DNA from: Escherichia phage FL08 | Length of the DNA: 64,000 nucleotides | Sequence record: PP400785 | Strand: one strand, 5' to 3' | Part shown: one piece after another, positions 3,595-29,953 of the stretch | How the letters are laid out: each line of letters begins with the position of its first letter | Numbering within the stretch: position 1 is the stretch's first letter | The notes under the pieces: model-generated | The model's input: the letters and a program-made list of their open reading frames with translations, nothing else | What the model was told of the DNA's origin: nothing | Databases searched by the model: none | Translations under genes and position numbers: made by a program

Positions 3595-3814
3595 CTAAAA
3601 TGTAATCGCTGATTGTAACAGTTTTTACTTCACCACAAAAGAATTCTAACGCAATCAAATCTCGTTCAATTTCTTCCAATTGAAGCATTAACTTGCCTGA
3701 TTCAGTTTTCACATTTTTGCGATTTTTGCTATAAGCTATTTCATAAATTTCGCTTACTTTATCTTGAAGAAGATAAAACTGATCTTTAGTTATTTCCACG
3801 AATAGCTTCCTCAA
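3554..3814 (-). CDS. hypothetical protein (86 aa)
   Basis: small ORF between dexA and dda; start may lie downstream of track start. Confidence 0.4.
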   Translation of the reverse strand: MRKLFVEITKDQFYLLQDKVSEIYEIAYSKNRKNVKTESGKLMLQLEEIERDLIALEFFCGEVKTVTISDYILGEISHLYKAVIND

Positions 3815-3820
3815 ATTTAA

Positions 3821-5140
3821 TCATACATAAAATACATCATAACGACCACGGGTAACACCAACATAAAGAAGTTGTTGGGCCAATTCAGCATCTGCATAAT
3901 GAATGCAAGGCGTATAAATGAAAGCACGGTCTACAGACATACCCTGAGCTTTATGGAATGTTGATGCAGGAAGTGCTTTCACTTTACTAAACTGTGATTT
4001 AGCATCCCAAAAATCACTCCATGGAGCTTTTCCGCCTTTGTTCCAATTTTTATAAGTTTCTGCCGTTTTACCTAAAAATAGGTTAAACTTATACAGTTCT
4101 TCATCAGATGAAATTATTTTAATCTTTTCACGATAATATTCATCATCGCCATAAGTTTCTACTGTTAAATCCCAGTGACGAATTAGATATTCTCCAGAAA
4201 CACCACGAGCTTTAACAAAGGTTGATGTATACTCTGCTTCTATAATACGAACTAATTGTCCGTTATTAAAAATAATTTCTGACACAGGCTTTCCATCAAT
4301 TTTATATGTTTTAATTAATGGTTCCTGCATTACAATAATTTCACCGACAATAAAATCTTTATCAGTTTCAAAAATCTTTTTACGAATAATGCTATTTAAC
4401 TTGTCAACAGATTTATTCGTAAATGCCATTACGCGATTTTCAAACAAATCATCTAGTGATTTGACGATTGAAAAATAATTTACCATAAAATCGCGTAAAG
4501 CGGTATCACCAGTAAATCCACGTACTCCATGCCCGTCAACAACTTTATCATAAATCCACTTACCGTTACGAACGTCAGTAGCTACATCAATAATAGGAGC
4601 ATTACTGCGTTTAACTTCAGTGAGTTCACACTGATAAAAATCTTTGTGTGTAAAGAATGGACTGATATAAGCAGTATTTTCTCCTGGGTCAACAGGTCTA
4701 ATTTGCTTATTATCACCTATTCCAATTATAGTACACCAAGGTGGGATAGTTGAAAGCAAAATTTTGAAGAGCTTTCTATCATACATTGACACTTCGTCGC
4801 AGATTAATACCCTGCATTTAGCTAAATCTGGTACTTCTTTTTGTTCAAAAAGAACGTTTTCTTCATATGTTACTGGGTTAATTTTAAGAATGCTGTGAAT
4901 AGTACTTGCTTCTTTCCCAGATAGTTTTGAAAGAATCTTTTTAGCTGCATGAGTAGGAGCTGCTAAAATAATACCAGTTTCACCTGTAGATATTAAAGCT
5001 TCAATGATGAATTTGGTAAGAGTAGTCTTACCAGTACCAGCAGGTCCATTAATAGTTACATGATGTTTCTTTTCTTTAATAGCCTTCATAACAATGTTAA
5101 AGGCATTTTTCTGGCCTTCGGTCAAATCATCAAATGTCAT
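3821..5140 (-). CDS. dda: Dda DNA helicase (SF1B)
   Basis: 439 aa, Walker A GPAGTGKT, sequence recognisable as T4 Dda; T4 size 439 aa. Confidence 0.9.
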   Translation of the reverse strand: MTFDDLTEGQKNAFNIVMKAIKEKKHHVTINGPAGTGKTTLTKFIIEALISTGETGIILAAPTHAAKKILSKLSGKEASTIHSILKINPVTYEENVLFEQKEVPDLAKCRVLICDEVSMYDRKLFKILLSTIPPWCTIIGIGDNKQIRPVDPGENTAYISPFFTHKDFYQCELTEVKRSNAPIIDVATDVRNGKWIYDKVVDGHGVRGFTGDTALRDFMVNYFSIVKSLDDLFENRVMAFTNKSVDKLNSIIRKKIFETDKDFIVGEIIVMQEPLIKTYKIDGKPVSEIIFNNGQLVRIIEAEYTSTFVKARGVSGEYLIRHWDLTVETYGDDEYYREKIKIISSDEELYKFNLFLGKTAETYKNWNKGGKAPWSDFWDAKSQFSKVKALPASTFHKAQGMSVDRAFIYTPCIHYADAELAQQLLYVGVTRGRYDVFYV

Positions 5141-10591: not shown

Positions 10592-11242
10592 TTATTTTTC
10601 CTTTCTTATGAAGTTTTCTATCATATGTCTATAGCAGATATTAGGATAACCTGCCTTGACAGCTATTTTATTAAATTTTGTGCGCTTAGGTCTATTATTA
10701 TAAACCCATAATTCATAAAGCGCATCATAACTATTCCATATTTCTCCTCGCCTAGGATTTGGTAAACCATATCGAGGTGAATTTTTACCGCTAAATCTTC
10801 CTTTTCGGGCTTTACTCATATTAGCCTTGGCTTCATCGGATATAATTTTACCTTTATGAGCTAGACGCATTTTGGCTTTAGTTTCTTCTGGGGTCTTTTT
10901 GCCTTTAATCCATGACGGCTTGCCATATCTAGGATTATTTTCACCCGAGAAAAGAACAGAGTTTTGGATTTTAAGGGTTTCTATTAATCTACTTGTTAAT
11001 TTAACACCTTTATTATATCGCATTAAATTTACAGCATAATGCAATCCTCTCACATCTGGATATATTTTAGTTAATAATCTATGAGCTATAAAATGCTCAC
11101 GCGCAGTTAACTCAACAAGATTGTTTTTGTCATCTGCTCCTCCTATACATCTAGGAATTATATGATGGCGTTCTTTATATCCGCCAAGATGCCGGCATTT
11201 AGCTTTTGTAATTAAAGCCGAGTAAATTTTTTGGTAATTCAC
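10592..11242 (-). CDS. HNH homing endonuclease (Mob-like)
   Basis: N-terminal HHIIPRCIGG...NLV.LT..EH..AH HNH motif; C-terminal NUMOD-like repeats (NPRYGK, SPRYGL). Confidence 0.8.
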   Translation of the reverse strand: MNYQKIYSALITKAKCRHLGGYKERHHIIPRCIGGADDKNNLVELTAREHFIAHRLLTKIYPDVRGLHYAVNLMRYNKGVKLTSRLIETLKIQNSVLFSGENNPRYGKPSWIKGKKTPEETKAKMRLAHKGKIISDEAKANMSKARKGRFSGKNSPRYGLPNPRRGEIWNSYDALYELWVYNNRPKRTKFNKIAVKAGYPNICYRHMIENFIRKEK

Positions 11243-13872: not shown

Positions 13873-13930
13873 AACAATCTCCTCATTTAACCAACAAGAC
13901 TACTATACCATAGTCTTGTCAGCTTGTAAA

Positions 13931-15358
13931 CTAAAATTTTAATTCATTTGCCAAAGCATCTAACTGAGCTCGAGTGGATTCATTTCTTTGATAACGATTC
14001 TGCTCAGCCTGAATCTGTTGTGAACCTGCTACTTCGTTCACTTCAGTTGGAGTAGAATCTTGTTCAATTTCTACCCATTTCTGATTTCCCTTTTGAACAC
14101 CCATCAAAAACTTATTCCATTTGTTCTTATCACCATATCGTGATTTGATTTGCTTAATGAGTTGTTGTTCAGCAGCTGCTAGCTCCTCGGTTTCAATGAC
14201 CGCAAGCATAAAATCGGCTGTTGCTGGAAGACCAGCAGATTCTGCAATATCGCTCATGTTAACATCGGAAGAGTCCCAAGCTTGTTTACCAACCTGTGCT
14301 GCAGTCCAAAGAACAGTTTCGGTTTCAACAGCCAGAGCACGCAATTCCTCGGCAATAGCTTTAACAGTTGTGTAACTATTTTCTGAATAAACTCTAATGC
14401 GGCAAGATTTACAAATACCTAGATAGTCGACAATAATGATTGTTGGAACAAAATTCTTCTTGAGCTTCAATTCGTTTAAAAGTGATCGAAATGTATTAGC
14501 GTCTGCTCCACCAGTAGGATACTGTTTAACGATTAAACGGCCGAGAGTAGATTTCTCACGCCATTTTTCCATTTTTCCTTTATATTCAGCGTAAGAAATA
14601 TGCCCATCATCAATGTCATCAAGAGAAACATCAAGCATGTTAGCGTCAATACGCTTAGCACAGACTTCTTCTGCCATTTCCATGGAAATATAAAGAACAT
14701 TATGTCCGAGCTGTAAATAATCTGCCGCTAATGAACACAATCCTAATGATTTACCAACGTTAACGCCAGCCATTAAAACGTTCAGTGTTCCAGTTTCAGC
14801 TCCGCCTTTCGTAATTTTGTTTAGAATTCTGAGTTTAAATGGAACCTTACGAGCTTTATTCATATAAGATAGCCAACGCGCTTCATAGTCATCCATCCAA
14901 TCATGACCAACGTAGCTATCAAATGAAATTGATAATGCTTGGCGCATGATGTCAGGAATAGCACCTACATCTGGCATTTTCTTATTTCGTTTTTCCGGAG
15001 GAAGCTCAGCATTAGTTTGAATTTCGATTATTTTAGACGTAGCATTAAACATCGCCCTTTGCTGAACATATTTTTCTGTTTCTTTTACTAACCAGCTGTG
15101 GTCTTCTGGAGAATCAGCCAGTTTTGAAATAAGTGTTTTTACACCAGAATATTCTGTTTCAGTAAATGAACTATTTTCTAATGCAACATTTAACGCATTA
15201 ATAGATGGAACGCTATGATACTCATTAACATGAGATTTAATTAATTTGAATGTATTTTTAGCTGGACCACTTTCAAAATATTCTGAATCCATATATGGCC
15301 AAACTTTTGAAAAATAAGCTTGATCAAATATGAGATGAGAAAGAATAATTTCTACCAC
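13931..15358 (-). CDS. 41: replicative DNA helicase (gp41, DnaB-like)
   Basis: 475 aa; Walker A GVNVGKS; T4 gp41 size and neighbourhood. Confidence 0.9.
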   Translation of the reverse strand: MVEIILSHLIFDQAYFSKVWPYMDSEYFESGPAKNTFKLIKSHVNEYHSVPSINALNVALENSSFTETEYSGVKTLISKLADSPEDHSWLVKETEKYVQQRAMFNATSKIIEIQTNAELPPEKRNKKMPDVGAIPDIMRQALSISFDSYVGHDWMDDYEARWLSYMNKARKVPFKLRILNKITKGGAETGTLNVLMAGVNVGKSLGLCSLAADYLQLGHNVLYISMEMAEEVCAKRIDANMLDVSLDDIDDGHISYAEYKGKMEKWREKSTLGRLIVKQYPTGGADANTFRSLLNELKLKKNFVPTIIIVDYLGICKSCRIRVYSENSYTTVKAIAEELRALAVETETVLWTAAQVGKQAWDSSDVNMSDIAESAGLPATADFMLAVIETEELAAAEQQLIKQIKSRYGDKNKWNKFLMGVQKGNQKWVEIEQDSTPTEVNEVAGSQQIQAEQNRYQRNESTRAQLDALANELKF

Positions 15359-15367
15359 ACTTACTCC

Positions 15368-15730
15368 TTAAAAGAATTTAAATTTTTTCTTTGACCTTTT
15401 ATTAAATGCATCTTGTAGTTGCATTGTAATACATTTTTCTACATGAGGAGCTAACTCAGCTTTTCTTTCTTGGTCAAGAACAGCAAAGTCCATTACGACT
15501 TTTCCATCAACCCAATCTAATTTTGTCACATACACAATGTGTGTAGAACCATCTTCTAGTTTAATGACAATCTCCTGGATAACATTTTCCATAGCAGATT
15601 TAATTATCTTAAGAGACTCATTAAAAAGACGTTCTTTTCTTTCTTCTTCCCCCTCCGAAGAGGGGGATTCATCGATAATTTCTAGATCTAAATCTAAATC
15701 ATCTTTATTCATTAAATTCTTCCATATCAC
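15368..15730 (-). CDS. 40: head vertex assembly chaperone (gp40)
   Basis: 120-aa acidic ORF between uvsX and 41 as in T4. Confidence 0.55.
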   Translation of the reverse strand: MIWKNLMNKDDLDLDLEIIDESPSSEGEEERKERLFNESLKIIKSAMENVIQEIVIKLEDGSTHIVYVTKLDWVDGKVVMDFAVLDQERKAELAPHVEKCITMQLQDAFNKRSKKKFKFF

Positions 15731-16886
15731 TTAACTGCTCGAGGTCAGTTTCTAAATCAGATGCTGATTTACTTTTACTTTCTGGAGATTTAAATTTTTC
15801 AACCTTTGAGTTAATCAATTCATCAACTTCAGCTTCAACAATTTCATTGCTATCAATAGCACCTAACTGATAAGCACGTTTAATAGCATCTCGGAATGGT
15901 TGATGCTTAAATAAAGGACCCCAGAATGTAGTGCAGTTGGTATCTTTTGCACGCCAAGATTTTTCTTCGCGAATCATCTCACCGGTTTCTTCATCAAGAA
16001 ATTCACGGGCATACCAGCCATTTTTAGGTTTTACCACGAATCCTAATTCTAGAGCCATATCTAACAATCCAGAATAAGGATCGATACCACCGTCAAATTT
16101 AACATCAATAAAGAATTTACTTTTTTCTTTAACGGTACGAGATTTTTCTACATTTAGAACAAATTGATACCCCTGAAGATCAGAACCATCTTTAATCTGG
16201 CGTTTACCGATAATGAATACGGTATCAGCCGAATACATTACGCCTGTACCACCTGTCATCACGGTTTTACTAAACATTTCAATTGTTTCAATTGTATGGT
16301 TAACCGCAACACATGGAATATTTTTAATGCTAAAATAAGGAGTAACAATACGGAATAATGACTTCAGTGATTTAGCACGAGTCATATCTGCCACAGATTT
16401 TTCATTCAAGGCATCTTCCGTTTCTTTCTTAGAAGCCATATTACCGATTGAGTCGATGAATACAATAACCTTTTCACCACGCTCAATAGCTTCAAGCTGA
16501 TTCACCATGTCAATTTTCAGTTGTTCAACTGACTGGATTGGTGTATGAATTACTCGTTCCGGGTCAACTCCCATGGATCGCAAATAAGCTGGAGTAATAC
16601 CAAATTCGCTATCATAGAATAGACAAACCGCGTCAGGATATTTGTTCAAATATGCCGCAACCATAGTCAAAGACATATTTGATTTAAAGTGTTTAGAAGG
16701 CCCTGCGAAAATAGTTAAACCAGACTGCATGCCGCCATCAATCGCACCAGAAATAGCAATATTAAGCATTGGGATTTTTGTACGGATTACATCCTTTTCA
16801 TTAAAGAATTTAGATGTAGTCAGTTCAGCAGTCATTTTAGAAGTGGAAGCTTTAATCAAACGGGATTTTAAATCTGCAATAGACAT
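15705..16886 (-). CDS. uvsX: UvsX recombinase (RecA/Rad51 family)
   Basis: 393 aa; Walker A GPSKHFKS; long stretches recognisable as T4 UvsX. Confidence 0.9.
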   Translation of the reverse strand: MSIADLKSRLIKASTSKMTAELTTSKFFNEKDVIRTKIPMLNIAISGAIDGGMQSGLTIFAGPSKHFKSNMSLTMVAAYLNKYPDAVCLFYDSEFGITPAYLRSMGVDPERVIHTPIQSVEQLKIDMVNQLEAIERGEKVIVFIDSIGNMASKKETEDALNEKSVADMTRAKSLKSLFRIVTPYFSIKNIPCVAVNHTIETIEMFSKTVMTGGTGVMYSADTVFIIGKRQIKDGSDLQGYQFVLNVEKSRTVKEKSKFFIDVKFDGGIDPYSGLLDMALELGFVVKPKNGWYAREFLDEETGEMIREEKSWRAKDTNCTTFWGPLFKHQPFRDAIKRAYQLGAIDSNEIVEAEVDELINSKVEKFKSPESKSKSASDLETDLEQLSDMEEFNE

Positions 16887-16963
16887 TCATTTTTTCCATA
16901 GGCATCATTATATTTTCCTCACTGGTTAAAGATAGAGTAATTATAACACAATAAATTTAGGCA

Positions 16964-17812
16964 TTAATCAACTGCTATCGGATGAATAGCATTAAACTTA
17001 TGAAATGCTTCTGATTTTTCTTTACGCGAAACACACATGCGAAGAACCTTTAATGGCTCGTCTTCTTCACCCAACGATTTTCGTTTTTCAATATTAGAAG
17101 TTTTCCAACGAGCTTGTTCTGGAAACTCTCTATTGATTTGCTCAAGCGCTCTATTATGTTTAGAATTACTACGAATTGAACTGCACCCGCCAGGAGCTTG
17201 TGCTTTTCCAGATACAACCAGATATTTGAACAAGGCCAAATGCGGATAACCTTGATTAATTAAATTGAGAAATGCATACATATCTTCGCATAAATCAATT
17301 TTTCCATACCCAATTTGTTCTGTCGTAAGTTTTCCGAGGTCATACCATGTATTCGTGAATCCATATGAATTTTCACGATAATTACCCCAAGATGAAGTAA
17401 TTTTAAAAATAGGTAGACGAGCATGACCATGATAATACCCGCAATCCATGGCATCCTCAACATATTGAATCAATTCATAGAACTGTTCACGAGTCAATTG
17501 ATTGACTTTATCTACACAACGACGATCATCTCTTTTTCGCATTGAACTCATACGAATAGTAGTATCATCGTCAATCATCCAGATTCGTTGACCTGCATAC
17601 ATATCAGTAATTGCTTTACGAGTACCGGCAATTCCATTTACATCATCAGGAATAGTTATAATTTTAGCTCTAGACCCATAGGCATCATAATAAGCTTTTT
17701 CTTCGTGTTCACGTACTACAATATGTGGTTCATAATCAGTCGGAAACATATCAAGGGCAGAAACTGCCCCTACACGTTGATAGCTTGGAATTACGAATTG
17801 AATCATTTCCAC
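16964..17812 (-). CDS. glycosyltransferase with DxD motif at the bgt locus (possible T2/T6-type beta-glucosyl-HMC-alpha-glucosyltransferase)
   Basis: 282 aa; WMIDDDT DxD motif; lies between uvsX and 42 where T4 has 351-aa bgt, but does not resemble T4 Bgt. Confidence 0.5.
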   Translation of the reverse strand: MEMIQFVIPSYQRVGAVSALDMFPTDYEPHIVVREHEEKAYYDAYGSRAKIITIPDDVNGIAGTRKAITDMYAGQRIWMIDDDTTIRMSSMRKRDDRRCVDKVNQLTREQFYELIQYVEDAMDCGYYHGHARLPIFKITSSWGNYRENSYGFTNTWYDLGKLTTEQIGYGKIDLCEDMYAFLNLINQGYPHLALFKYLVVSGKAQAPGGCSSIRSNSKHNRALEQINREFPEQARWKTSNIEKRKSLGEEDEPLKVLRMCVSRKEKSEAFHKFNAIHPIAVD

Positions 17813-18543
17813 TCACCGTTATAATCTTTTTTCACAATATGAGTTTCGCCAGTATTCCACCAATGATCAACCAAGTAAAAATGACGAGAATATACATGAA
17901 GACTTCCAACATTCCATATAATAGAACCTGCTTTATACTGACGAGTTGAATCGCCTGCATTCAAATCAGATACTAATTTATCTAATACGTATTTTTGCCA
18001 TGCATAATCATTACGGAATCCGAAGACCACGTCATTTGAGCGCATGCTTACTACTGCATTGACTTTCTTATCACGAATCAGGTACTGTACTGTATTCGTA
18101 CACATGAAATCTGACATACCATCTTTATTGTAGTCAAATTGCATGGATGGACGAGTATAAATCATGATACCACGTCGAGAATCAGGATTTTGACCAAGTT
18201 CAGCTAAACACATATCATACTGGGCATAGTTATCTTCTGACCAGATAGCCCAGCCATAATTCGAGTTAATTTCACCTTTAGAAGATGCTACTTGTTGCCA
18301 AATCTTCGGTGTTTCACCCGGAATATCTTTAACAAACAGACTTTGAGACTTGTACCATTCAAGTTCACGCTGAATGTATTCATCATTAAGAGCGCCAAAA
18401 ATAAACGGTTCATCTGCTACAAATGATGCGCCAATAATTTCAATAGTTTTAACGCCAGTTTTATCAACTACGAAATCTTTTTCTTTTAATGCAAGCCCCA
18501 AATGAAGACGGATTTCTTCAACTGTCATAGAGTCACTAATCAT
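17803..18543 (-). CDS. 42: dCMP hydroxymethylase (gp42)
   Basis: 246 aa (T4 gp42 size); thymidylate-synthase-like sequence. Confidence 0.9.
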   Translation of the reverse strand: MISDSMTVEEIRLHLGLALKEKDFVVDKTGVKTIEIIGASFVADEPFIFGALNDEYIQRELEWYKSQSLFVKDIPGETPKIWQQVASSKGEINSNYGWAIWSEDNYAQYDMCLAELGQNPDSRRGIMIYTRPSMQFDYNKDGMSDFMCTNTVQYLIRDKKVNAVVSMRSNDVVFGFRNDYAWQKYVLDKLVSDLNAGDSTRQYKAGSIIWNVGSLHVYSRHFYLVDHWWNTGETHIVKKDYNGEWK

Positions 18544-18696
18544 TTAAACCTCAATTGATACATTCATATTTAACTTGTAACAGTAATAAACCCCACCCTA
18601 TGATAAGAGTTGGAATCATAGCAGGAACTGTTACGCTATAGTATATACTTATTATAACCATCAAGATTAAAAGCAACACTGTTATAATTTTGCTTT

Positions 18697-18948
18697 TCAT
18701 TCCTTCTCTCTGATGATAATTACCTGATTTGGTTGTGCAGACTTTTTAGTTTCACCCGCAATTGACCAAATAAATGTAATAAACCAACCAATAATTGACC
18801 AGTTAAACAGTAAAGACGTGAAAAAGATTCCTACTGTAGATTTTGACCCACGCATCAAGGCGATAAACCATGGAAGCATGTATATAATAATAGCCAACAC
18901 ACCTGAAACTAAAACCATAAAAATTGAACCTGCTACTAAAGTTTCCAT
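18697..18948 (-). CDS. imm: superinfection immunity protein Imm
   Basis: 83-aa two-TM membrane protein between 42 and 43; T4 Imm is 83 aa. Confidence 0.75.
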   Translation of the reverse strand: METLVAGSIFMVLVSGVLAIIIYMLPWFIALMRGSKSTVGIFFTSLLFNWSIIGWFITFIWSIAGETKKSAQPNQVIIIREKE

Positions 18949-18955
18949 GTTTTCC

Positions 18956-19336
18956 TCACTTAGTCAAATTTTTTACACATGAATTATAAGAATTCACTAC
19001 ATACTCCATCGGAGCATTTTTACCAGTACGCCATTGGTAATTATTAGCCCAATTAGCCCAAATTTCGGCGCAGTAGTTTTCAATTTTTTCTTCGCGTGTA
19101 ATTACATCTGAATTACGATATGCTTGAGCAGATTCATCTGGACGAATAGCTTCGTCAAAATTCGCCTGCATTTGTTCTACTGTTTGCTTTGGAGCTTCTT
19201 TATAACACTTGACATTAGGATTATAAAATTTGCTTGAACAGTTTACAATTTTTCCTGCATCAGACTGATTTACTACCGGTCCTTGAGCTACACAACCAGT
19301 AAGACCTAATGCAATAACCAAAATAGCGATTTTCAT
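18956..19336 (-). CDS. putative lipoprotein (imm.1 position)
   Basis: Signal peptide with lipobox LTGC at N-terminus. Confidence 0.5.
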   Translation of the reverse strand: MKIAILVIALGLTGCVAQGPVVNQSDAGKIVNCSSKFYNPNVKCYKEAPKQTVEQMQANFDEAIRPDESAQAYRNSDVITREEKIENYCAEIWANWANNYQWRTGKNAPMEYVVNSYNSCVKNLTK

Positions 19337-19346
19337 AATAATTTCC

Positions 19347-19583
19347 TCAAATGCAAGTAGTAATTACTCCAGTAGTGCTTATGCAGGTATTACCCATTTG
19401 CACACCTAAAGATCCATTTGTATTCACATGAAGATTATCATCAATTTTAACTGATATTTTACCATTAGTGTGAATAACGGTGCTAGATTCAATCACAGGT
19501 TGAGTATCATTTTCAACACTAACAAATGGAACTGCTGCTAATGCAACTAAACAAACTGCTAAGCATCCCATAACAATTTTCAT
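19347..19583 (-). CDS. small secreted protein (78 aa)
   Basis: Start moved to ATG (MKIVMG) preceded by GGAG; signal peptide; track start is a TTG inside the promoter leader. Confidence 0.45.
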   Translation of the reverse strand: MKIVMGCLAVCLVALAAVPFVSVENDTQPVIESSTVIHTNGKISVKIDDNLHVNTNGSLGVQMGNTCISTTGVITTCI

Positions 19584-19609
19584 TTTATTCTCCAAATCCG
19601 TATTAGTTG

Positions 19610-19670
19610 ATAGTTGTATAGTACCATGGAAGAACAGTCTTGTAAACAGTTTTGTGAAAATTTTTTTAGG
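19610..19670 (-). promoter_or_regulatory. early promoter cassette (GTTTAC -35, TACTATAC -10, A/T-rich UP element)
   Basis: Minus strand aaaattttcacaaaactGTTTAC-18nt-TACTATAC; -10 and leader repeated near-identically at 47770..47830, 62488..62550. Confidence 0.6.
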
Positions 19671-19735
19671 GAATTCTAAAGGTCCAGAATCATCTGTTTT
19701 TCATAAGTATAGATTTATATTACTTGTATGAAAAA

Positions 19736-19751
19736 GGGACCCGGAGGTCCC
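19736..19751 (-). terminator. intrinsic terminator hairpin downstream of gene 43
   Basis: gggacc-cgga-ggtccc hairpin followed by U-run on minus transcript. Confidence 0.6.
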
Positions 19752-19764
19752 TAGATTTATTCTA

Positions 19765-22461
19765 TCAGCCAAACAGGAAGTCTAACGAAGCTTTTTCTTC
19801 ATAGTCCATACCAGCCGATTCACACATGCCTGCAAGCGGTTTAACAAACGATTTTTGGAACAAAGTTGAGTAGTCAATCCAAGACAGTACGTCAGAACGA
19901 ATTTCTTTTGGAAGTTCTGTACCCGACGGCCAAGCAATGCACTTGTCACCAAATGGATTTCCTTCACGCAATGGAAGAACCATTACTTTATTTCCATCCA
20001 AAATTGGAGCTACACCTAAACCGCTAACAGCTCGACGATAAGTTAGCACACCACGAATATGGAACGGACATTTAAATCCTGGCCAACCTTTATCATCATA
20101 TTTCGCTATATCGTTCGCAGTTTTTACTTCAGCAATAACTTTATAGTCAAGTTGACGATATTCTTTCTCGAAGTTCTTGTAATATTCTTGGACAGACTCT
20201 TCACCTTCCTGAAGAATACGACGAATACTTTCTTCGAGAGCTTCTTGGACCGCTTTAGGCGTTGAACTCTGCTGAGTTTCCATACCCATGATTTTTAGAT
20301 GTGGTTCAGCAAAACGCTTATCTTCCATATCATAAACGTTCAGAGCATAACGCTTTTTCGCTTTCCAAAATCCACCAACGCCCTTTGAACCAAGTGGAGG
20401 GCAAGAAATAGCTTCACGGTCCATATGCATCAGATGCTCGCGGTTATTCATATAATCACATAACTCACGATATGCAACATCAATCATAGGTTCCATCTTT
20501 TTCTTACCGAACTGATTCATGAATTCAACTAAATCGTTCTGCTCTTTGAATCGGTCAAGACCAACTTTTTCAATAACTTTATCTACACAAACATATACCG
20601 AATCAGTATCACCTGCTGCAATGAAATCTTCGCCATTAGTTCCGCATACTTTATTCAGATATTCATTAATTTTACGAGCAATCCACTGAATACCGACTTG
20701 GCCAAAAATTGTGATAGCAGTAGCATTTCGCAAATCATAGTAACGGAAATGAATATTACCAAGAGCACCATAAAGACTGTTAATGAGAATTTTACGGTTC
20801 AGCTGATTTGTATTAGCAAGTGTAGCCGCTTTTTCACATTCTTCAATCAGACTATTGAGAACAGATTCGGTGTAATTCGACAGTTCATTTAAAAAATCAT
20901 CAGTGAACTTAACATATCGTTCAACTTCTGGTTTAGTTGAACAAGACCCTGCGCCTTTCATAATAATCTTTTTAATAGCTTCGGCATTCATTTCTTCAGC
21001 GAACATTTTCTTTTTCCAGTCTTTACGCTGGAAAAATACTTTAGCGATTTCCTTTGGAATGATACCTTCTTGATGCTTATCATACATCCATCCATTCGGA
21101 GAACAAGAATATTCTTCACTTGGCTTAGGAGCTGTTCCTGCGATATATTCATGAATTGGATGAACTTTAAATTGTCCACGAATAGTCTCAGGACTAATGT
21201 TAACCTGACGAATAATGCTCGGATACAGAGACGTCAAGTCAAAACTCATAATATATCGACGAGCAATTGGTTTAGGTTCAAACACAAATGCACCCGGAAA
21301 ACTCTGTTTAACGTGCGAACCTTGTTGAGGAATAACCTTATGTTCACCTTTCAATGAGTTAAAAATAATAGCATCCCAGGTTTTAATAGGACTCATTACA
21401 CCAGAAAAAGGCATTTTAGCGTAATAAGACATACTTAAAACTAGATCGATAAACCCGCGAATTTTATCAATTGCTTGAACTGATTCTACGTCAATGATGT
21501 TATAACTAATGTATCGTTGATGATTAGTCTCACGAAGTTTATTAATAGGACCATCATACGGTAATTTACCTTTTTTGGTTTCATGTTGAGCAACTGATTC
21601 CAAAGAGAATGACGGCAAATTAGTAAAAGCGAATTTCTTGTACAAATCTAAATAATCAAGAATAGATACGCCATCAATAGAATAAATTTCTTTGCTACCG
21701 TACATATTTTGAATTAGTTTAGATTTTACTCGACCGATTGGAGAGAAGCGTTTCATACTACGTTCACCGAGAACCATTTTAACACGATTCATGATATACG
21801 GAACGTCAAATCCCTCAATATTCCAACCGGTAAAAATAGCAGGTCGTTTCTGTTCCCAGAGATTAATATATTCCATGAGCATATCACGCTCATTATCAAA
21901 TGACATATAAATTACTCGGTCAAGAATTTCTTGAGGAACTTCATCACCACCTTCACAGTCAAGCTTAGCAGCTAACTTTGCATCCCATTTTGATACTGAA
22001 CCGTACATTGAATTCAACAAATCAAAGACGTAAAAACGATCGTCAATTGAATCATAATGAGTGATAGCATCAATTTCATATTCAGCTTTCATTGGGTCAG
22101 GAAATTTATCACCAGTAACCTCAATGTCACAGTTAGCTACACGAACAAATTTTCGGTCATAAACAATTTCTGAACCATACGTATCACTGATATAAGCGAG
22201 TTTAAAATCGTTCATACCAAGAGCTTCGAGACCGATGTCTTCCATTCGCTTCATCCAATCTCGAGCATCTTTCATTGATTGAAATTTTTGAGGAGCGCAA
22301 TTTTTACCATAAATGTCTTTGTACTTTGACTCTTCCTTACAATGCCTAAACATAGTTGGAAGATATTCTACTTCACGAGTACGTTCCTTTCCGTTTTCAT
22401 CAATATAACGTTCAACAATGTTATTTCCGACTGTTTCGATAGAGATATAAAATTCTTTCAT
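19765..22461 (-). CDS. 43: DNA polymerase (gp43, family B)
   Basis: 898 aa (T4 gp43 size); exonuclease and polymerase motifs incl. DTDS; sequence recognisable as T4 gp43. Confidence 0.95.
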   Translation of the reverse strand: MKEFYISIETVGNNIVERYIDENGKERTREVEYLPTMFRHCKEESKYKDIYGKNCAPQKFQSMKDARDWMKRMEDIGLEALGMNDFKLAYISDTYGSEIVYDRKFVRVANCDIEVTGDKFPDPMKAEYEIDAITHYDSIDDRFYVFDLLNSMYGSVSKWDAKLAAKLDCEGGDEVPQEILDRVIYMSFDNERDMLMEYINLWEQKRPAIFTGWNIEGFDVPYIMNRVKMVLGERSMKRFSPIGRVKSKLIQNMYGSKEIYSIDGVSILDYLDLYKKFAFTNLPSFSLESVAQHETKKGKLPYDGPINKLRETNHQRYISYNIIDVESVQAIDKIRGFIDLVLSMSYYAKMPFSGVMSPIKTWDAIIFNSLKGEHKVIPQQGSHVKQSFPGAFVFEPKPIARRYIMSFDLTSLYPSIIRQVNISPETIRGQFKVHPIHEYIAGTAPKPSEEYSCSPNGWMYDKHQEGIIPKEIAKVFFQRKDWKKKMFAEEMNAEAIKKIIMKGAGSCSTKPEVERYVKFTDDFLNELSNYTESVLNSLIEECEKAATLANTNQLNRKILINSLYGALGNIHFRYYDLRNATAITIFGQVGIQWIARKINEYLNKVCGTNGEDFIAAGDTDSVYVCVDKVIEKVGLDRFKEQNDLVEFMNQFGKKKMEPMIDVAYRELCDYMNNREHLMHMDREAISCPPLGSKGVGGFWKAKKRYALNVYDMEDKRFAEPHLKIMGMETQQSSTPKAVQEALEESIRRILQEGEESVQEYYKNFEKEYRQLDYKVIAEVKTANDIAKYDDKGWPGFKCPFHIRGVLTYRRAVSGLGVAPILDGNKVMVLPLREGNPFGDKCIAWPSGTELPKEIRSDVLSWIDYSTLFQKSFVKPLAGMCESAGMDYEEKASLDFLFG

Positions 22462-22521
22462 AGATATTCCTTAGTTTATAGCCCGAGTTATTAGGCTCTT
22501 GATATATTATACTCCAATTAA

Positions 22522-22535
22522 GGGGCCGAAGCCCC
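22522..22535 (-). terminator. UUCG-tetraloop hairpin between regA operon and gene 43
   Basis: ggggc-cgaa-gcccc on plus = GGGGC-UUCG-GCCCC in minus transcript. Confidence 0.55.
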
Positions 22536-22539
22536 TTGC

Positions 22540-22761
22540 TTAAATTAGTACTATTTGTCGGGTGAAAATTGTCAATCCATCTGCATTAATTGACTTAACG
22601 ACCGCGGTAAAGTGTTTTTGTTCTGGGTGAACTAATTTTTGAAATTCTACCTGAAATTTTAGTTGAAGGTTTTCTGGTAAATCGAAAAGTGTTTCTGTTG
22701 CAGAAAGACTATATTTTTCTTTAAGAGACGCCATGTATTCTTGCGGAGTTATAGCAGTCAT
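22540..22761 (-). CDS. hypothetical protein (73 aa)
   Basis: ORF between regA and 43; start trimmed to internal ATG abutting regA stop. Confidence 0.4.
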   Translation of the reverse strand: MTAITPQEYMASLKEKYSLSATETLFDLPENLQLKFQVEFQKLVHPEQKHFTAVVKSINADGLTIFTRQIVLI

Positions 22762-22762
22762 A

Positions 22763-23131
22763 TTAATTACCAATCGTATATTTAGGAACGAGTTTCCATT
22801 CATGTTTTTGTTTAAAAGAAATAACTCGGAAGTTATTAGTTAAATCTTTCATAAAAGTTCTTTGACCAGGAACGATTTCAATCAGTCCCCAATCTTCTAA
22901 TAGCCATGCAATCGAATCACGACGAACTTCATCTTCTTCTGTCATTTCAACTTGACGACCATCCATACGAAGCATTTCTTTAAAATGAACGATATAGTAT
23001 AGTCCTTTTTTCTGAAGAATATGACAGGACTGATACAGAACTTTATCTTTATTATTAGCAATTCCCATACGAGTCAAAGTTTCTTTTACTTTCAGAAAAT
23101 CTTCAGGTTTTTTAAGAGTAATTTCAATCAT
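22763..23131 (-). CDS. regA: translational repressor RegA
   Basis: 122 aa; sequence recognisable as T4 RegA; position downstream of 62. Confidence 0.9.
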   Translation of the reverse strand: MIEITLKKPEDFLKVKETLTRMGIANNKDKVLYQSCHILQKKGLYYIVHFKEMLRMDGRQVEMTEEDEVRRDSIAWLLEDWGLIEIVPGQRTFMKDLTNNFRVISFKQKHEWKLVPKYTIGN

Positions 23132-23132
23132 T

Positions 23133-23696
23133 TTACCATTCCAATGCTAGTTTTTTGAGTTGTTTCTGTTCTTTTACGTTCTTAGTCACTTCTTTCAAAA
23201 AATCATCCGTGACTAAACCTTTTAGTTCTTTTAATACTAAAGGAAGTTTTCCATTTTTAGTAAGAATTGATTTATAGTTAATTGCATCATTTGTATTAAC
23301 TTGATACCGCTTAGCAAGTAACTTAATAATCAATACTTCGGTGGAATCTTCAACCAGTTTTGCCCATTTACCATATCTTTTACCACGAGGAACTGCAGCC
23401 ATTAGATAATTAAAATGAGCTTCATCACTTAAGCCTGATCCAATTAAATTCATAGCATATACAGCTGGCATGCACTCTGGAAATTGTGATAATGCATTTT
23501 CAACCATGAATTTTGAATAATCTTTTTGGGCAATTGAGCATTTAGTTTTATTATTAATAGCTCCAATTATTTCAAAAAATTCATTTTCAGCTTTTTCTTT
23601 AAAAGAATCAGCAGCAGATTGGACAGCTGTCCAATCTTTTGAATACCAAGCAACTTGATGCTCGTTTAATTGAATATCATCTTCAAATAAGCTCAT
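23133..23696 (-). CDS. 62: clamp loader small subunit (gp62)
   Basis: 187 aa (T4 gp62 size); between 44 and regA. Confidence 0.85.
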
Positions 23697-23697
23697 A

Positions 23698-24672
23698 TCA
23701 CTTCCACTGCATTTCGCATGCTAATTGAATGAAAAGATAAGCTAAATGCAATTCAGTATTAGCTGCAATACCATGATACTGATTATTTTCGCCGACAATT
23801 TCGTACATACGAATAATACTCTGTGGTGTTACACGTGAATAGATTTCTTCGGCAAGTTTACCCACGAACCACGAATAATCGGCTGCATATTTTGGTGCTA
23901 AAGCTCTGAGTTGTTTAACATCTTTATTTTTGAGAGACTCAAGAACATCATCAATAGCACCACGATCGTTAGTAACCAGTGATAAAATACCAGCATCCAA
24001 AACACCTTTAGATGAATAACTATCGAGCTCACCAATAGTTTTACGAAAATCAGGAAAATTCTTTTTAACCAAAGCTGCTACAACTTTCATATCAGCTATA
24101 GCAATTCCTTCATGCTTGCAGATTTCAGTCAATCGACGAATCATCTGCTTCATCATTTCAATTTTATCTTCATCAGTCGGTTGACCGAATGTAATAACAC
24201 GACAGCGTGACTGAAGCGGTTTAATAATACCATCAATATTGTTAGCAGTAATAATAATACTACAGTTTGAACTATAAGCTTCCATAAAGGAACGAAGATG
24301 TCGCTGAGACTCTGCTAACCCTGAACGGTCAAATTCATCAATAACGATTACTTTTTGACGACCATCAAATGAAGCTGCACTAGCAAAATTAGTCAAAGGA
24401 CCACGAACGAAATCAATTTTACAATCTGACCCATTCACAAACATCATATCAGCATTTACATCATGACACAATGCTTTTGCTACAGTCGTTTTACCTGTTC
24501 CTGGAGAAGGAGAATGAAGAATAATATGTGGAATTTTACCTTTACTTGTAATAGATTTAAAGGTTTCTTTATCAAAGGCGGGAAGAATACATTCATCGAT
24601 AGTAGATGGACGATATTTCTGTTCAAGAATGTGTTCTTTTTCATTTACGGTAATCATAATTTCCTCATTCAA
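23698..24672 (-). CDS. 44: clamp loader ATPase subunit (gp44, AAA+)
   Basis: 324 aa; Walker [15 protein letters not shown] Walker B, SRC-like motif. Confidence 0.9.
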
Positions 24673-24692
24673 GTTTTAGTGTAAATTATAAA

Positions 24693-24704
24693 GGGCCGAA
24701 GCCC
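24693..24704 (-). terminator. UUCG-tetraloop hairpin between 45 and 44
   Basis: gggccgaagccc inverted repeat followed by U-rich tract on minus transcript. Confidence 0.5.
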
Positions 24705-24708
24705 TCTA

Positions 24709-25395
24709 TTAAAAATCATGGGTAGAATCAGCTTCAAGAGCTACTACATAATTCGCGTGTTCACCTTCAAATTTAGCAGCACCTTGTTTACCTTTTGCCC
24801 AGAGCAGAAGTTTATAATTTCCTGGTTGCATTTTCATATTTGCCATATTGATAATGAAATTAAATGTATTTTCACCATCATAATCACCAAGAGTCAAAGA
24901 ATATTTAACACGGGTCAGAGCAGAATCTTCTACTTTATTAAAACCGTTAATTACGATTTTACCTTCTTTTACTGTGATAGCAATTGTATCAATTTGCAGA
25001 CCACGAGATACACGTAACAGTTGTTGAAGGTCTTCAGCTTTAATTTCGGTAACAACAGATGCTACCGGGAATGGAATTGGTTTATTAGGAGCAACTACTG
25101 TACTTGGATCGGCTGCTGGCCAAAAAATTGTTGAGCGAGCATCAGCAATTTTAATATTTCCATCTTCTGACTGGGAAATTTCTGCATCATCATTAACTAG
25201 AGACAGAATACCGAGAAAACCGTTCAAATCGTAAATTGCTACATCAAAATCAATAACGTCAGAAATATTTGCTTCCGCATAAGTTGTACCATTAACTGCG
25301 CGAGTCATAATAAATTGACCGGATTTAAGCATAATACCAGAGTTAATAGTAGCGAAATTTTTAAGCAGAGCAGTAGTATCTTTAGACAGTTTCAT
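24709..25395 (-). CDS. 45: sliding clamp (gp45)
   Basis: 228 aa; sequence recognisable as T4 gp45. Confidence 0.9.
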   Translation of the reverse strand: MKLSKDTTALLKNFATINSGIMLKSGQFIMTRAVNGTTYAEANISDVIDFDVAIYDLNGFLGILSLVNDDAEISQSEDGNIKIADARSTIFWPAADPSTVVAPNKPIPFPVASVVTEIKAEDLQQLLRVSRGLQIDTIAITVKEGKIVINGFNKVEDSALTRVKYSLTLGDYDGENTFNFIINMANMKMQPGNYKLLLWAKGKQGAAKFEGEHANYVVALEADSTHDF

Positions 25396-25450
25396 GTAAT
25401 TTCCTTCAATTCAAATGAGATTTAATTTTATAACTAATTTAATAAAGCAA

Positions 25451-25840
25451 TTAACGATTAAAATCAGCTGCGATTGTTTCGGCAACAATTTGAGCAGCAA
25501 CAATTAGACGTTCATCTGCATTGCCGCAATATTCATCTTCAAGGCGTTCACCACATGAAGTCATAATAAATTTAGCACCAGCGTTTAGGGATTCTGTAGT
25601 ATGTTTGCGCATTAGTTCAATCCATTTATTACTTACTTCACGATCGATAGCTTCATAATACGCATGACGAGCAGGTGCAGATTTAATTTTGTTCTGAATA
25701 ACTTCCATTGCGTTATCAGAAAGAGACAAAACCCATGCTCGACGAATTTTATTTTGGTTTTGTGGATTTGATTCAGAACGCACGTGTTTTGGCTGAATAT
25801 CTTTTACATCAACAGTATAATTCACAGTAATTTTAGTCAT
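25451..25840 (-). CDS. rpbA: RNA polymerase binding protein RpbA
   Basis: 129 aa (T4 RpbA size), located just upstream of 45. Confidence 0.7.
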
Positions 25841-25849
25841 AATACACCT

Positions 25850-26041
25850 TTAGTCATAATAATCAGTAACAGTCCAAGCTTCATTTCTATTGGACATTAT
25901 TTTTGTATATTCTGCTTTAAATGCATTCCTAAGCATAGATTCAGTAACTATATGCTCTTCATTAGAAAAATTATTTCTCAGAATATATCGTTTTATTTCA
26001 GGAATAGTTAATAGATGCTGTCCGGTTGAATATTCTGCCAC
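25850..26041 (-). CDS. hypothetical protein (63 aa)
   Basis: small ORF upstream of rpbA (45.2-like position). Confidence 0.4.
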   Translation of the reverse strand: MAEYSTGQHLLTIPEIKRYILRNNFSNEEHIVTESMLRNAFKAEYTKIMSNRNEAWTVTDYYD

Positions 26042-26092
26042 AATTCCTCCGTATAAATATGTTTATCACTCGCTGTATCAAAAGGATATGTT

Positions 26093-26809
26093 ATGAATTA
26101 TAAACTAATTTATGAAAAGTTAATCTCTAATGCTAAATCTCGAAAACTTGATTGCTATACTGAATCTCATCACATTATACCACGCTGTTTAAATGGCAGC
26201 GATGATGCTTCAAACTTAGTAGATTTAACACCAGAAGAGCACTATGTAGCTCATCAACTTTTAGTAAAAATTTATCCTTCTGAACCAAAATTAGTCTATG
26301 CTGCTAACATGATGACAGTTTCCACGAAATACGCTAAACGCAACAATAAAACTTTCGGTTGGATTCGTCGTAAACTCTGGGAAATAGAAAAGAATAAAGA
26401 ATTCTCCCAAGAGACACGAAAGAAAATGTCTGATGCAGTAGCTAATAAAGCAAGACTAACTTGTCCTCATTGCGGTAAGTCTGGATTAAGCGGGAATATG
26501 AATCGATGGCATTTTGATAACTGCCCGAATCACCCTAATCCTAAAGTTAGACCACCGATGTCTAAAGAACACAGAAATAATATCTCAAACGGGCTTAAAG
26601 CAATCATTCTTGAAGAAACATCCTGCGAATTCTGCGGAATGATAGGCAAGAAATGCGTTATCGCAGCGCATAGAAATTTCTGCAAGAAAAATCCAAATGG
26701 ACGCAAGAAAACTGAAAAGACTGGTACTTGCGTCCATTGTGGTAAAGTTACCACTTTCGGAAATTTATCAAGGTGGCATAATGATAACTGTAAATATAAA
26801 CCTAGCTAA
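26093..26809 (+). CDS. HNH homing endonuclease (Mob-like) with C-terminal Cys-rich zinc-finger repeats
   Basis: Plus strand; N-terminal ESHHIIPRCLNGSDD...NLV.LT.EEH..AH HNH motif shared with the two minus-strand HNH genes; CPHCG / CEFCG / CVHCG repeats. Confidence 0.8.
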   Translation: MNYKLIYEKLISNAKSRKLDCYTESHHIIPRCLNGSDDASNLVDLTPEEHYVAHQLLVKIYPSEPKLVYAANMMTVSTKYAKRNNKTFGWIRRKLWEIEKNKEFSQETRKKMSDAVANKARLTCPHCGKSGLSGNMNRWHFDNCPNHPNPKVRPPMSKEHRNNISNGLKAIILEETSCEFCGMIGKKCVIAAHRNFCKKNPNGRKKTEKTGTCVHCGKVTTFGNLSRWHNDNCKYKPS

Positions 26810-28490
26810 TCTTAGCTAAACTAAATCTACCAACTTTTTCCATTTGAATATGCTGACCATATTCTTGTGGGTCATGGTCTTTATGCGAAATTATGAAGAA
26901 GTTGGTATCCTTCAAACCATCTAAAATTTTAGCTACATTTTTAATACCTTCAGCATCAAATGCACCGTCATACACTTCATCAAGAAATAAACAACTTATT
27001 TTAACACCTGAAACTTTTTCAGCAATATCACGCCAAGTAAATAAAAGAGCAATATCAATTCGTGCTTTTTCGCCTTGACTGAATGAAGCATAACTAAAAT
27101 CTTCGCGACCGCGGGATTTAATTGTCTCATTAAATTCTTCATCTAATGTAAACACATAATCCGCTTCCATTATTTTAAGATAATGGTTAATCTGCTTATT
27201 AAATAATGGAATGTACTTTTTAATAATAGCACCTTTAATACCAGAATCTTTGAGCATATCAGTCAAAATTCCTCGGTGGTATTTTTCCATTACCAAATTA
27301 GTTTTTGTCTTAACAATTTTATCAAGTTCTTCTTGAAGCAGTGCTATTTCATCAGCATGGTCAATAAACTCAGAAGATGCTTTTTCTATAGCTGCTTTAA
27401 CTTTTTTGGCTTTATCTACCGTCGTGATTAGAGATTGCTTTTTATTGCGAATATCATTTGCCAACGACTGTTGGGTTTTAATATTATCTCGGTATTCATC
27501 AACAAGAACTTTTAAATTATCACGATGTGTTGAAAGCTGTTCAAACGAATGAGTACATTCAGAAACTTTATCTTTAATTTTAGAAACAACTTTATCACCG
27601 GAACTTAATTGTGACAAACAGGTTGGACATAATCCACCTTCGTGATACATATTAATGACTTTATTATACGAGTCAATTTTCGATTTAATTAAAAATGCTT
27701 CTTGGCCGATTTTATTAAATGCATCAGTCGGGTCTTCATCCAAAACAATATTAACTAATCTTTCATTAGCTTCTTCTATTTCCGATTTTAGCGTTCTAGC
27801 TTCTTTTGCCAAATCATCGTACATATTTTGCAGACGAGTAAGGTTGTCACCCGTTAATTTTTTCTGGCGTTCAACGTTATCATTATATATTTTAATTTGT
27901 TGGATAATACTATCTCTTTTAACATCAAGCACTTGGTTTTGTGAATTTAATTCACGTATTAGCGCTTTATTAAGCTTATCCATTTCAGCTAATGTTCCTA
28001 CCTCAAGCAGGTCTTCCACAAGCTTTCTTCGTGCAGGGGTCGACAAACCCATGAAAGGGGTATACCCTGCTGTACCAAGGACAACAATCTGCTTGAAACT
28101 GGCATATGACATTCCGATAAGCTGTTCAAATTCTGCTTGGAAATCTTTACTGCTGGCAGATTCATTAAGACGTGTACCGTTAACGGTGATTTCGAAAACG
28201 TTTGGTTTTTGTCCTCTTTTGATATAGTACTTTTTCTCATCATATTCCATCCACAGTTCAACTAAAAGTTCTTTCTTATTTGTGCTGTTTATTAATTGAC
28301 CTTTCTTTACATCACGGAATGGCTTGCCAAAAAGCCCAAATGTGATGGCTTCTAACATAGTAGACTTACCACCGCCATTTCGTCCAGTAATAAGAGTTTT
28401 TTGAACCTTATCTAATTGAATGTCAATAGGATTTCCACCTACTGACATTATATTTTGATACCTAACTCGGTTTAGTTTAAAATTCTTCAC
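26802..28490 (-). CDS. 46: recombination endonuclease subunit gp46 (Rad50/SbcC-like)
   Basis: 562 aa; Walker A GRNGGGKST, central coiled coil with CPTC zinc hook, C-terminal signature/Walker B LFLDE. Confidence 0.9.
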   Translation of the reverse strand: MKNFKLNRVRYQNIMSVGGNPIDIQLDKVQKTLITGRNGGGKSTMLEAITFGLFGKPFRDVKKGQLINSTNKKELLVELWMEYDEKKYYIKRGQKPNVFEITVNGTRLNESASSKDFQAEFEQLIGMSYASFKQIVVLGTAGYTPFMGLSTPARRKLVEDLLEVGTLAEMDKLNKALIRELNSQNQVLDVKRDSIIQQIKIYNDNVERQKKLTGDNLTRLQNMYDDLAKEARTLKSEIEEANERLVNIVLDEDPTDAFNKIGQEAFLIKSKIDSYNKVINMYHEGGLCPTCLSQLSSGDKVVSKIKDKVSECTHSFEQLSTHRDNLKVLVDEYRDNIKTQQSLANDIRNKKQSLITTVDKAKKVKAAIEKASSEFIDHADEIALLQEELDKIVKTKTNLVMEKYHRGILTDMLKDSGIKGAIIKKYIPLFNKQINHYLKIMEADYVFTLDEEFNETIKSRGREDFSYASFSQGEKARIDIALLFTWRDIAEKVSGVKISCLFLDEVYDGAFDAEGIKNVAKILDGLKDTNFFIISHKDHDPQEYGQHIQMEKVGRFSLAKIS

Positions 28491-28750
28491 AAAAGATTCC
28501 TTTTAATGTATCTTTTAGACCATTCTATCATATCATCATAATCTAAAAAGTATTCATCAAATTCAGCCATGCAAACAACACCTTGTGCTGCTTTTGATGT
28601 GATATAAATTATTCCAACATATCTAGAATCTTCTTCGGTATAATCAATGTTTGCTATGAATTCATCATTAATGTCAAATGTCGAAAACTTCACAGTATGC
28701 ATCCTTAATACAAGATACGGCCATATCTCGCAATGATTTAGGTGTGTCAT
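28487..28750 (-). CDS. hypothetical protein (87 aa)
   Basis: small ORF between 47 and 46. Confidence 0.4.
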   Translation of the reverse strand: MTHLNHCEIWPYLVLRMHTVKFSTFDINDEFIANIDYTEEDSRYVGIIYITSKAAQGVVCMAEFDEYFLDYDDMIEWSKRYIKRNLL

Positions 28751-28937
28751 TATCTAAAATGTTGAAGTTAAAAGATACAGCCCAATCTGTACAGACCGTA
28801 ACTTTTTTAATACAATTATCTTCAACTTCTAGTGGTTCAAACCAATATTCAATAATTTCTTTATGCCCAATATCATCTTTTACTTCGCATTCAAAATGCT
28901 GACTCATCATAACATTTTTAAATTCATCAAAAGTCAT
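28674..28937 (-). CDS. hypothetical protein (87 aa or shorter)
   Basis: small ORF between 47 and 46; overlaps neighbour so start may be internal. Confidence 0.35.
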   Translation of the reverse strand: MTFDEFKNVMMSQHFECEVKDDIGHKEIIEYWFEPLEVEDNCIKKVTVCTDWAVSFNFNILDNDTPKSLRDMAVSCIKDAYCEVFDI

Positions 28938-29953
28938 TGTGTTGCCTCTACATATAACTGATTTGCATATTGAATAAGTGCTTCACGGTCAGAATCAGTG
29001 ATGTCTGGAATTGCATTAATGTATTCTTCCATCAACGTCTGAAGCGATTGAACTTCAACTTCTTCACTATCATCTGACCCGACAGAGTTATCAATCTTTG
29101 ACACAACTCGTAATGAATGCACAACTTTTTCTAGTTCAGATTCGAACTTCGTCAGATTTTTGTCTACTTCAGTTACTATAACACGTACTGATAGATTTGT
29201 AAAATCTTTATAGTCAATTTTTCCTTTAAATGGATAATGAATTCTACGATGCCAGGTAGTGTTGTTTGGAATAAATTCCATTCGTTCTGTTTCTGTATCA
29301 AACATCCAGAACCCACGAGGGTCATTCTCGTCACCTGCAGTTAGTGTCCATGGTGTCCCAATATACTTGACGTTTGCAGCCTCAGAAATAGTATGGAAGT
29401 GACCAGACCACACTTCTTTATAAGTCTTAAGGAAATCAGGTTCAAGACCATGAGATTTCATTCCTTTATAAAAATAAAATCCGTTCAGTTCCCAGTGACC
29501 AACACAAAAAGAAGCAGATGAAGTTTTGATATGCTCAAGAATTTCACCAGTATTTTCTTCACACATCCAAGGAATTAAATCAATCAAACATCCATCAAAA
29601 TCTACTGTAGTAGGCTTATCATACACTTTAACATTAGGATATTTAGCCAAAAGCTCAGTAGAGGCATTTGGATGCATTACATTTTTGTAGTGGAGATCGT
29701 GATTTCCTACAATAGTATGTAATGTGATTCCAGCGTCATCAAGCATTTGAACTATTTCACGGGCAAACTCCATAGTTTTATGCGTGATTGCTTTTCGCAC
29801 ATCAAAAATATCACCATATTGAATCCATACAGTAATTCCATTTTTCTTAGAATATTCTATCGCTTGCTTAATTCCATCAATTTGAATACCGCGAATCCAC
29901 TCATCATCAGCTTTAACGCCTAAATGCCAATCACCCAAGTTTAGTATTTTCAT
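28934..29953 (-). CDS. 47: recombination endonuclease subunit gp47 (Mre11/SbcD-like)
   Basis: 339 aa (T4 gp47 size); calcineurin-like phosphoesterase motifs GDWHLG, GDIFD, GNHD. Confidence 0.9.
   Translation of the reverse strand: MKILNLGDWHLGVKADDEWIRGIQIDGIKQAIEYSKKNGITVWIQYGDIFDVRKAITHKTMEFAREIVQMLDDAGITLHTIVGNHDLHYKNVMHPNASTELLAKYPNVKVYDKPTTVDFDGCLIDLIPWMCEENTGEILEHIKTSSASFCVGHWELNGFYFYKGMKSHGLEPDFLKTYKEVWSGHFHTISEAANVKYIGTPWTLTAGDENDPRGFWMFDTETERMEFIPNNTTWHRRIHYPFKGKIDYKDFTNLSVRVIVTEVDKNLTKFESELEKVVHSLRVVSKIDNSVGSDDSEEVEVQSLQTLMEEYINAIPDITDSDREALIQYANQLYVEATQ

Follow-up and report, generated by a model that had tools for sequence, protein, structure and literature searches.

In phage T4 the interval between uvsX and gene 42 is taken up by the homing endonuclease gene segA and by b-gt, which encodes the 351-aa beta-glucosyltransferase (Bgt), and the same locus in Escherichia phage FL08 raises the question of which sugar-transferring enzyme stands in this slot and what it would do to the 5-hydroxymethylcytosine (hmC) of the phage DNA. 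The answer given here draws on a 64-kb window of FL08 DNA (record PP400785), the whole stretch that was analyzed, and on comparison with records of related phages.

The cassette between uvsX and gene 42

Comparison by blastn of window positions 13900..22500 with T4 positions 20000..30000 delimits a cassette at 16875..17820 that has no nucleotide homology to T4: homology stops at 16874, in the first codons of uvsX, and returns at 17821, in the last codons of gene 42, with 946 bp in FL08 standing in for the 1941 bp that hold segA and b-gt in T4. The cassette is flanked downstream by uvsX (15705..16886, minus strand), a 393-aa ORF recognized by its synteny with uvsX of T4, T2 and T6, and on its other side by gene 42 (17803..18543, minus strand; Pfam Thymidylat_synt, E = 1.3e-15), whose 246-aa product is the dCMP hydroxymethylase that provides the hmC precursor. 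No segA lies between uvsX and the glycosyltransferase gene in FL08. The T4 segment spanning gene 42, imm and imm.1 is 95.7% identical in nucleotides to the window. Base composition across the cassette (GC 0.35–0.37) is like that of its surroundings and gives no hint that the cassette was acquired recently from elsewhere. Over its first 25 kb the window is ~97% identical to several Tequatrovirus genomes, and FL08 is, judged by its sequence, an ordinary T2/T6-like T-even phage.

The ORF at 16964..17812 (minus strand) runs without interruption between uvsX and gene 42, where an earlier note on this DNA had placed a glycosyltransferase. That note gave the protein 282 residues, a length that holds for the reading frame and most likely not for the protein. 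The ORF listing picks the first ATG, GTG or TTG following a stop, here the GTG at 17812. Two codons past it, the ATG at 17806..17804 shares an ATGA with the TGA stop of gene 42; T2 is annotated with an 843-nt CDS that starts at ATG with the identical 4-nt overlap, the annotation of Escherichia phage vB_Eco_TB37 (OZ035850; TB37 hereafter) likewise begins at ATG, and part of the tblastn matches in phage records start at query residue 3 of the 282-aa reading. Because the ATG with its ATGA overlap is the annotated start in T2 and TB37, the sequence most likely encodes a protein of 280 aa (16964..17806, minus strand), and the two additional codons GTG GAA (17807..17812, minus strand) are probably untranslated.

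This protein matches Pfam family PF20691 (TAGT, TET-associated glycosyltransferase) over profile positions 2–205 of 205, scoring 38.9 bits where the curated cut-off is 27.5 (E = 1.2e-9), and PHROG 842, 'beta-glucosyl-HMC-alpha-glucosyltransferase', over positions 3–269 of 270 (E = 2.2e-89). TAGT was the sole family that Pfam returned at E up to 1, with no match that would place the protein in CAZy GT2 / Glycos_transf_2. Alignment to the T2 enzyme (ggt of MH751506, positions 3286..4128 of the stretch compared) shows 278 of 280 residues identical (99.3%), the differences being R11H and P251S, with His11 and Ser251 in T2 and Arg11 and Pro251 in FL08; length, uvsX/gene 42 locus, ATGA overlap and a-gt partner are the same in both phages. 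Three substitutions (Y40N, D55G and R106H) separate the FL08 protein from T6 ggt over the part that aligns, and T6 also shares the locus and the a-gt partner. We have no functional difference to report between the T2 and T6 enzymes and that of FL08. The TB37 protein TRB37_043 is 100% identical to it, and the two genes agree at 819 of 843 nt (97.2%), with 24 synonymous and no nonsynonymous differences; as 24 nucleotide changes have left every amino acid in place, the comparison indicates strong purifying selection on the gene. Profile match, near-identity to the T2/T6 enzymes, uvsX/gene 42 context with an a-gt, and GT-A fold with a DxD motif (see below) all mark a member of the TAGT family. The T2/T6-type reading put forward in the earlier note is thus upheld, and we assign the gene product, with a probability of roughly 0.93, as the T2/T6-type beta-glucosyl-HMC-alpha-glucosyltransferase (ba-gt, also ggt or TAGT), for which UDP-glucose-dependent activity is supported by the literature on identical and near-identical proteins.

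A promoter scan returned 17 sites against 18.2 expected and is thus uninformative. The sole terminator-like hairpin near ba-gt, a 9-bp stem-loop at 17752..17772 (minus strand; TAGGGGCAG TTT CTGCCCTTG), sits in the coding region, within the first 20 codons. It is nearly kept in T2, T6 and TB37, a single change in TB37 falling in the first bases of the stem, and its presence could be coincidental or could bear on translation or on the stability of the mRNA. Between gene 42 and imm lies a 49-aa, strongly hydrophobic ORF (18551..18700, minus strand) that shares 4 nt with the imm ORF (18697..18948); Pfam gives no match for it, the T4, T2 and T6 records examined have no annotation at its position, and TB37 annotates a CDS at the matching position as 'Phage protein'. 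Between imm.1 and gene 43, the segment 19337..19569 is without nucleotide homology to T4 and holds an 82-aa ORF (19347..19595, minus strand) with a signal-peptide-like N-terminus and no Pfam match, at the site where T2 has the hypothetical protein RB51ORF048.

Fold, predicted active site and relation to T4 Bgt

The idea of a GT-A-type enzyme with a DxD motif, raised in the earlier note from the residues WMIDDDT, is supported by alignment and modeling. The motif spans residues 76–82 of the 280-aa protein (window 17561..17581), and Asp79-Asp80-Asp81, encoded by GAC GAT GAT at 17564..17572 (minus strand), form a predicted DxD-type motif for metal and nucleotide sugar. A word-indexed protein search found 11 family members, and in a 10-sequence family alignment that reaches down to 32% identity D79, D80 and D81 are invariant, as are P7-S8-Y9, R11, G58-I59, T62-R63, D175 and G206-G207. 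The structural model was built with this alignment, a single-sequence AlphaFold2 model (mean pLDDT 39.8) having been set aside as unusable. It places DDD straight after the strand 74–77, the usual DxD place in the GT-A fold; confidence is low in its C-terminal half, with residues 126–151, 203–211 and 261–280 below pLDDT 50. The neighbors listed by Foldseek are GT-A or related nucleotidyltransferase folds, with TM-scores of only ~0.4 and E ~4e-4, and the fold assignment therefore leans mainly on the N-terminal, nucleotide-binding half. A PDB sequence search at E up to 1 gave no match, and by sequence the family thus has no solved structure. The model supports a GT-A-like fold with a DxD motif for ba-gt, and not GT-B. 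Cellular GT-A enzymes, many of them GT2 members (cellulose synthase, TarP, hyaluronan synthase, chondroitin polymerase, WrtF), share 9–16% sequence identity with ba-gt and use lipid, polysaccharide or teichoic acid as acceptor, whereas that of the FL08 enzyme would be glucosylated DNA. The likeness of TAGT to GT2 is structural only, and has been published as that of a 'sister group' (PMC13216743).

A diverged T4-type beta-glucosyltransferase, one that adds a single beta-glucose straight onto hmC, was considered and rejected. T4 b-gt (PF09198) occupies the same uvsX/gene 42 position and shares UDP-glucose as donor and the beta linkage with ba-gt, and several database records name the gene 'b-gt' or 'putative beta-glucosyltransferase'. 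However, BLASTP of the ba-gt protein against T4 Bgt yields noise only (best E = 2.2 over 8 residues), in agreement with the dissimilarity claimed from the sequence alone, the protein has no match to PF09198 at E up to 1, and T4 Bgt used as a tblastn query has no match anywhere in the window. The window covers 64 kb of the genome, and no b-gt is known outside the uvsX/gene 42 locus. T4 Bgt is a GT-B enzyme whose acceptor is hmC itself, whereas ba-gt is of GT-A type and has as its acceptor the glucose of alpha-glucosyl-hmC; published classification puts T6 TAGT in GT-A and both T4 alpha-GT and beta-GT in GT-B (PMC13216743). TB37, with the identical protein, moreover has no detected beta-glucosyl-hmdC. 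At the level of sequence and fold the T4-type reading is already refuted, and we give it next to no chance.

Proposed pathway and extent of gentiobiosylation

The a-gt gene that the assigned ba-gt would depend on is intact, as had been claimed: the 400-aa ORF at 30731..31933 (minus strand) matches PF11440 (AGT) with E = 1.8e-237 and is 91.5% identical to T4 a-gt, 99.8% identical to that of TB37 and 100% identical to that of several phages. Directly downstream of it, a 207-aa ORF (29931..30554, minus strand) with a GIY-YIG match just under the cut-off (E = 3e-4, 21.4 bits against 22.6) is, on this match, probably a seg-like homing endonuclease.

In the pathway that we propose, 5-hydroxymethylcytosine would enter the DNA by way of gene 42 and the replication machinery of the phage, a-gt would put an alpha-linked glucose on hmC, thereby making the acceptor for ba-gt, and ba-gt would transfer a second glucose from UDP-glucose, beta-1,6 onto the first, to give gentiobiosyl-hmC. 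The invariant Asp79-Asp81 would hold a divalent metal and the UDP diphosphate, and the conserved Glu174-Asp175 pair is a candidate for the catalytic base. The GT-A-fold enzyme is probably inverting, since a beta product from UDP-alpha-glucose fits inversion. The same chemistry is published for T2 and T6, in which alpha-GT glucosylates hmC and ba-gt/TAGT then adds the beta-1,6 glucose to give gentiobiosyl-hmC (PMC6024577; PMC13216743; bioRxiv 10.64898/2026.02.25.707755), and in T6 without ba-gt alpha-glucosyl-hmC was reported as the sole remaining form (PMC11078745). HPLC/MS of TB37, whose authors describe TAGT as syntenic to T4 beta-GT, found ~1/3 5-hmdC and ~2/3 alpha-gentiobiosyl-mdC; alpha-glucosyl-mdC was at a low background level and the beta-glucosyl form was absent (PMC13390438). 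FL08 DNA should hold hmC, alpha-glucosyl-hmC and alpha-gentiobiosyl-hmC, and it is expected to be without beta-glucosyl-hmC because there is no b-gt within the window.

A TAGT-family enzyme might use another donor or acceptor, transferring a different sugar or acting on beta-glucosyl-hmC or directly on hmC. TAGT homologues co-occur with alpha-GT or with beta-GT, and a solitary TAGT is found in 288 of 753 phage genomes (PMC13216743), from which it follows that specificities within the family must vary; homologues of ~65% identity also adjoin Bgt homologues in CC31, STP4-a and Merlin. The relatives that vary in this way are no more than ~65% identical, however, whereas the FL08 protein is 99–100% identical to the T2, T6 and TB37 enzymes, whose product has been measured as gentiobiosyl-hmC, and another specificity for the FL08 enzyme is very unlikely.

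Damaged ba-gt alleles are found in two public T6 records. In MH550421 (3138..3980 of the stretch compared) codon 10 is changed from CAG to the amber codon TAG, and the CDS is annotated from Met20 with 261 aa; in AP018814 (3135..3974 of the stretch compared) one GAT is lost from the run GAT GAT GAT, turning WMIDDDT into WMIDDT in a protein of 279 aa. Since T6 is the standard example of a phage with heavily gentiobiosylated DNA, the two lesions may have arisen in particular stocks, the triplet run appearing prone to slippage, or may reflect errors of sequencing. The triad is encoded by GAC GAT GAT in T2 and TB37 as it is in FL08. That such alleles exist in stocks or records would make an inactive or decaying copy conceivable in FL08 too, but we hold this to be highly improbable: the FL08 gene is free of both T6 lesions, is full length and keeps every invariant residue, differs from TB37 at synonymous sites only, and with GAC as its first Asp codon breaks the T6-type triplet run.

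The earlier note expected gentiobiosylated rather than mono-glucosylated DNA, of which the gentiobiosyl-type enzyme stands and the strict either/or does not, for T2 with the same gene is mostly mono-glucosylated. Published values are ~70% alpha-glucosyl and ~5% gentiobiosyl hmC in T2 against ~3% and ~72% in T6 (PMC6024577; bioRxiv 10.64898/2026.02.25.707755), and an intermediate 1:2:2 ratio in three dam-bearing Durham Tequatrovirus phages, EL, BGP and Geo (PMC13390438). As T2 reaches ~5% despite a 99% identical gene, the extent of gentiobiosylation is not to be read from sequence, and from the T2 and Durham ratios it follows that presence of the gene alone does not fix the level.

These same two cases, the T2 gene at 99.3% identity and the three Durham phages, speak for a ba-gt that is present in FL08 but shows little action, as it does in T2, leaving ~70% mono-alpha-glucosyl and a few per cent gentiobiosyl-hmC. 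We consider this unlikely. The FL08 protein agrees at every residue with that of TB37, a phage with ~2/3 gentiobiosyl form, and has neither R11H, which in the 10-sequence alignment falls in an invariant column, nor P251S, in a column at least 90% conserved; the codon context of His11 was found in 8 records only, all of T2/SV76; and no dam is encoded in the window, as in TB37's group and unlike the intermediate-ratio phages, dam being a weak correlate only. At the position of T4 dam, between gene 56 and gene 61, the window has a 216-aa ORF of homing-endonuclease type (10592..11242, minus strand; NUMOD3 E = 8e-7, weak HNH E = 0.0019). We therefore infer with moderate confidence a high, T6/TB37-like pattern for FL08 rather than a low, T2-like one, favored because the protein is that of TB37, T2-private substitutions are missing and dam is missing.

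It is conceivable, though we advance it tentatively and would not be surprised to see it fail, that the ratio of mono- to diglucosyl forms in T-even phages is set largely by the ba-gt allele, the T2 allele being a hypomorph by way of R11H/P251S and that of FL08 a full-activity allele giving T6-like DNA. R11 belongs to the invariant N-terminal P-S-Y-x-R segment, which is predicted to bind nucleotide, and a T2 hypomorph, if true, could explain the long-known contrast of 5% gentiobiosylation in T2 with 72% in T6. This allele evidence is correlative, and the ratio could just as well stem from differing expression or from a-gt.

Prevalence and consequences for host defense

In a tblastn search of 50,697 phage records, ba-gt homologues were matched in 688, with 684 covering at least 80% of the ORF and 472 at 90% identity or above, many of them annotated as beta-glucosyl-HMC-alpha-glucosyltransferase. 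An ORF so widely shared has not arisen by chance. T4-type Bgt at 90% identity or above is found in only 29 phage records, whereas ba-gt reaches about 470, and a 2026 survey describes alpha-GT with TAGT as the common pairing and alpha-GT with beta-GT in 6 of 753 genomes (PMC13216743). In Tequatrovirus, ba-gt is the majority occupant of the locus and the alpha-GT/beta-GT pair of T4 the rare arrangement. A third state of the locus is seen in Tequatrovirus-like E. coli phages such as vB_EcoM-PM123 (MZ234043), with a Bgt homologue 55% identical to that of T4 and an a-gt 100% identical to that of FL08, and phages like CC31 (NC_014662), STP4-a and Merlin carry a Bgt homologue (~49%) beside a ba-gt homologue (~65%).

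That the sugar modification changes sensitivity to host defenses, as had been supposed for FL08, has published support. T6 lacking ba-gt is more sensitive to Brig1, which cuts out alpha-glucosyl-hmC and is impeded when a second glucose is present (PMC11078745), and BapA freed little glucose from T6 DNA, which its authors took to mean that it is unable to deglucosylate gentiobiosyl-hmC (bioRxiv 10.64898/2026.02.25.707755). GmrSD-type enzymes still cut (PMC11078745; PMC13216743; bioRxiv 10.64898/2026.02.25.707755). The gene, its position, fold class and prevalence and these consequences for defense are already published, and the finding is correct but ordinary. Its value is one of annotation: FL08 is to be expected to have T2/T6-type DNA and not the alpha plus beta monoglucosyl pattern of T4, which bears on the defenses that read these sugars.
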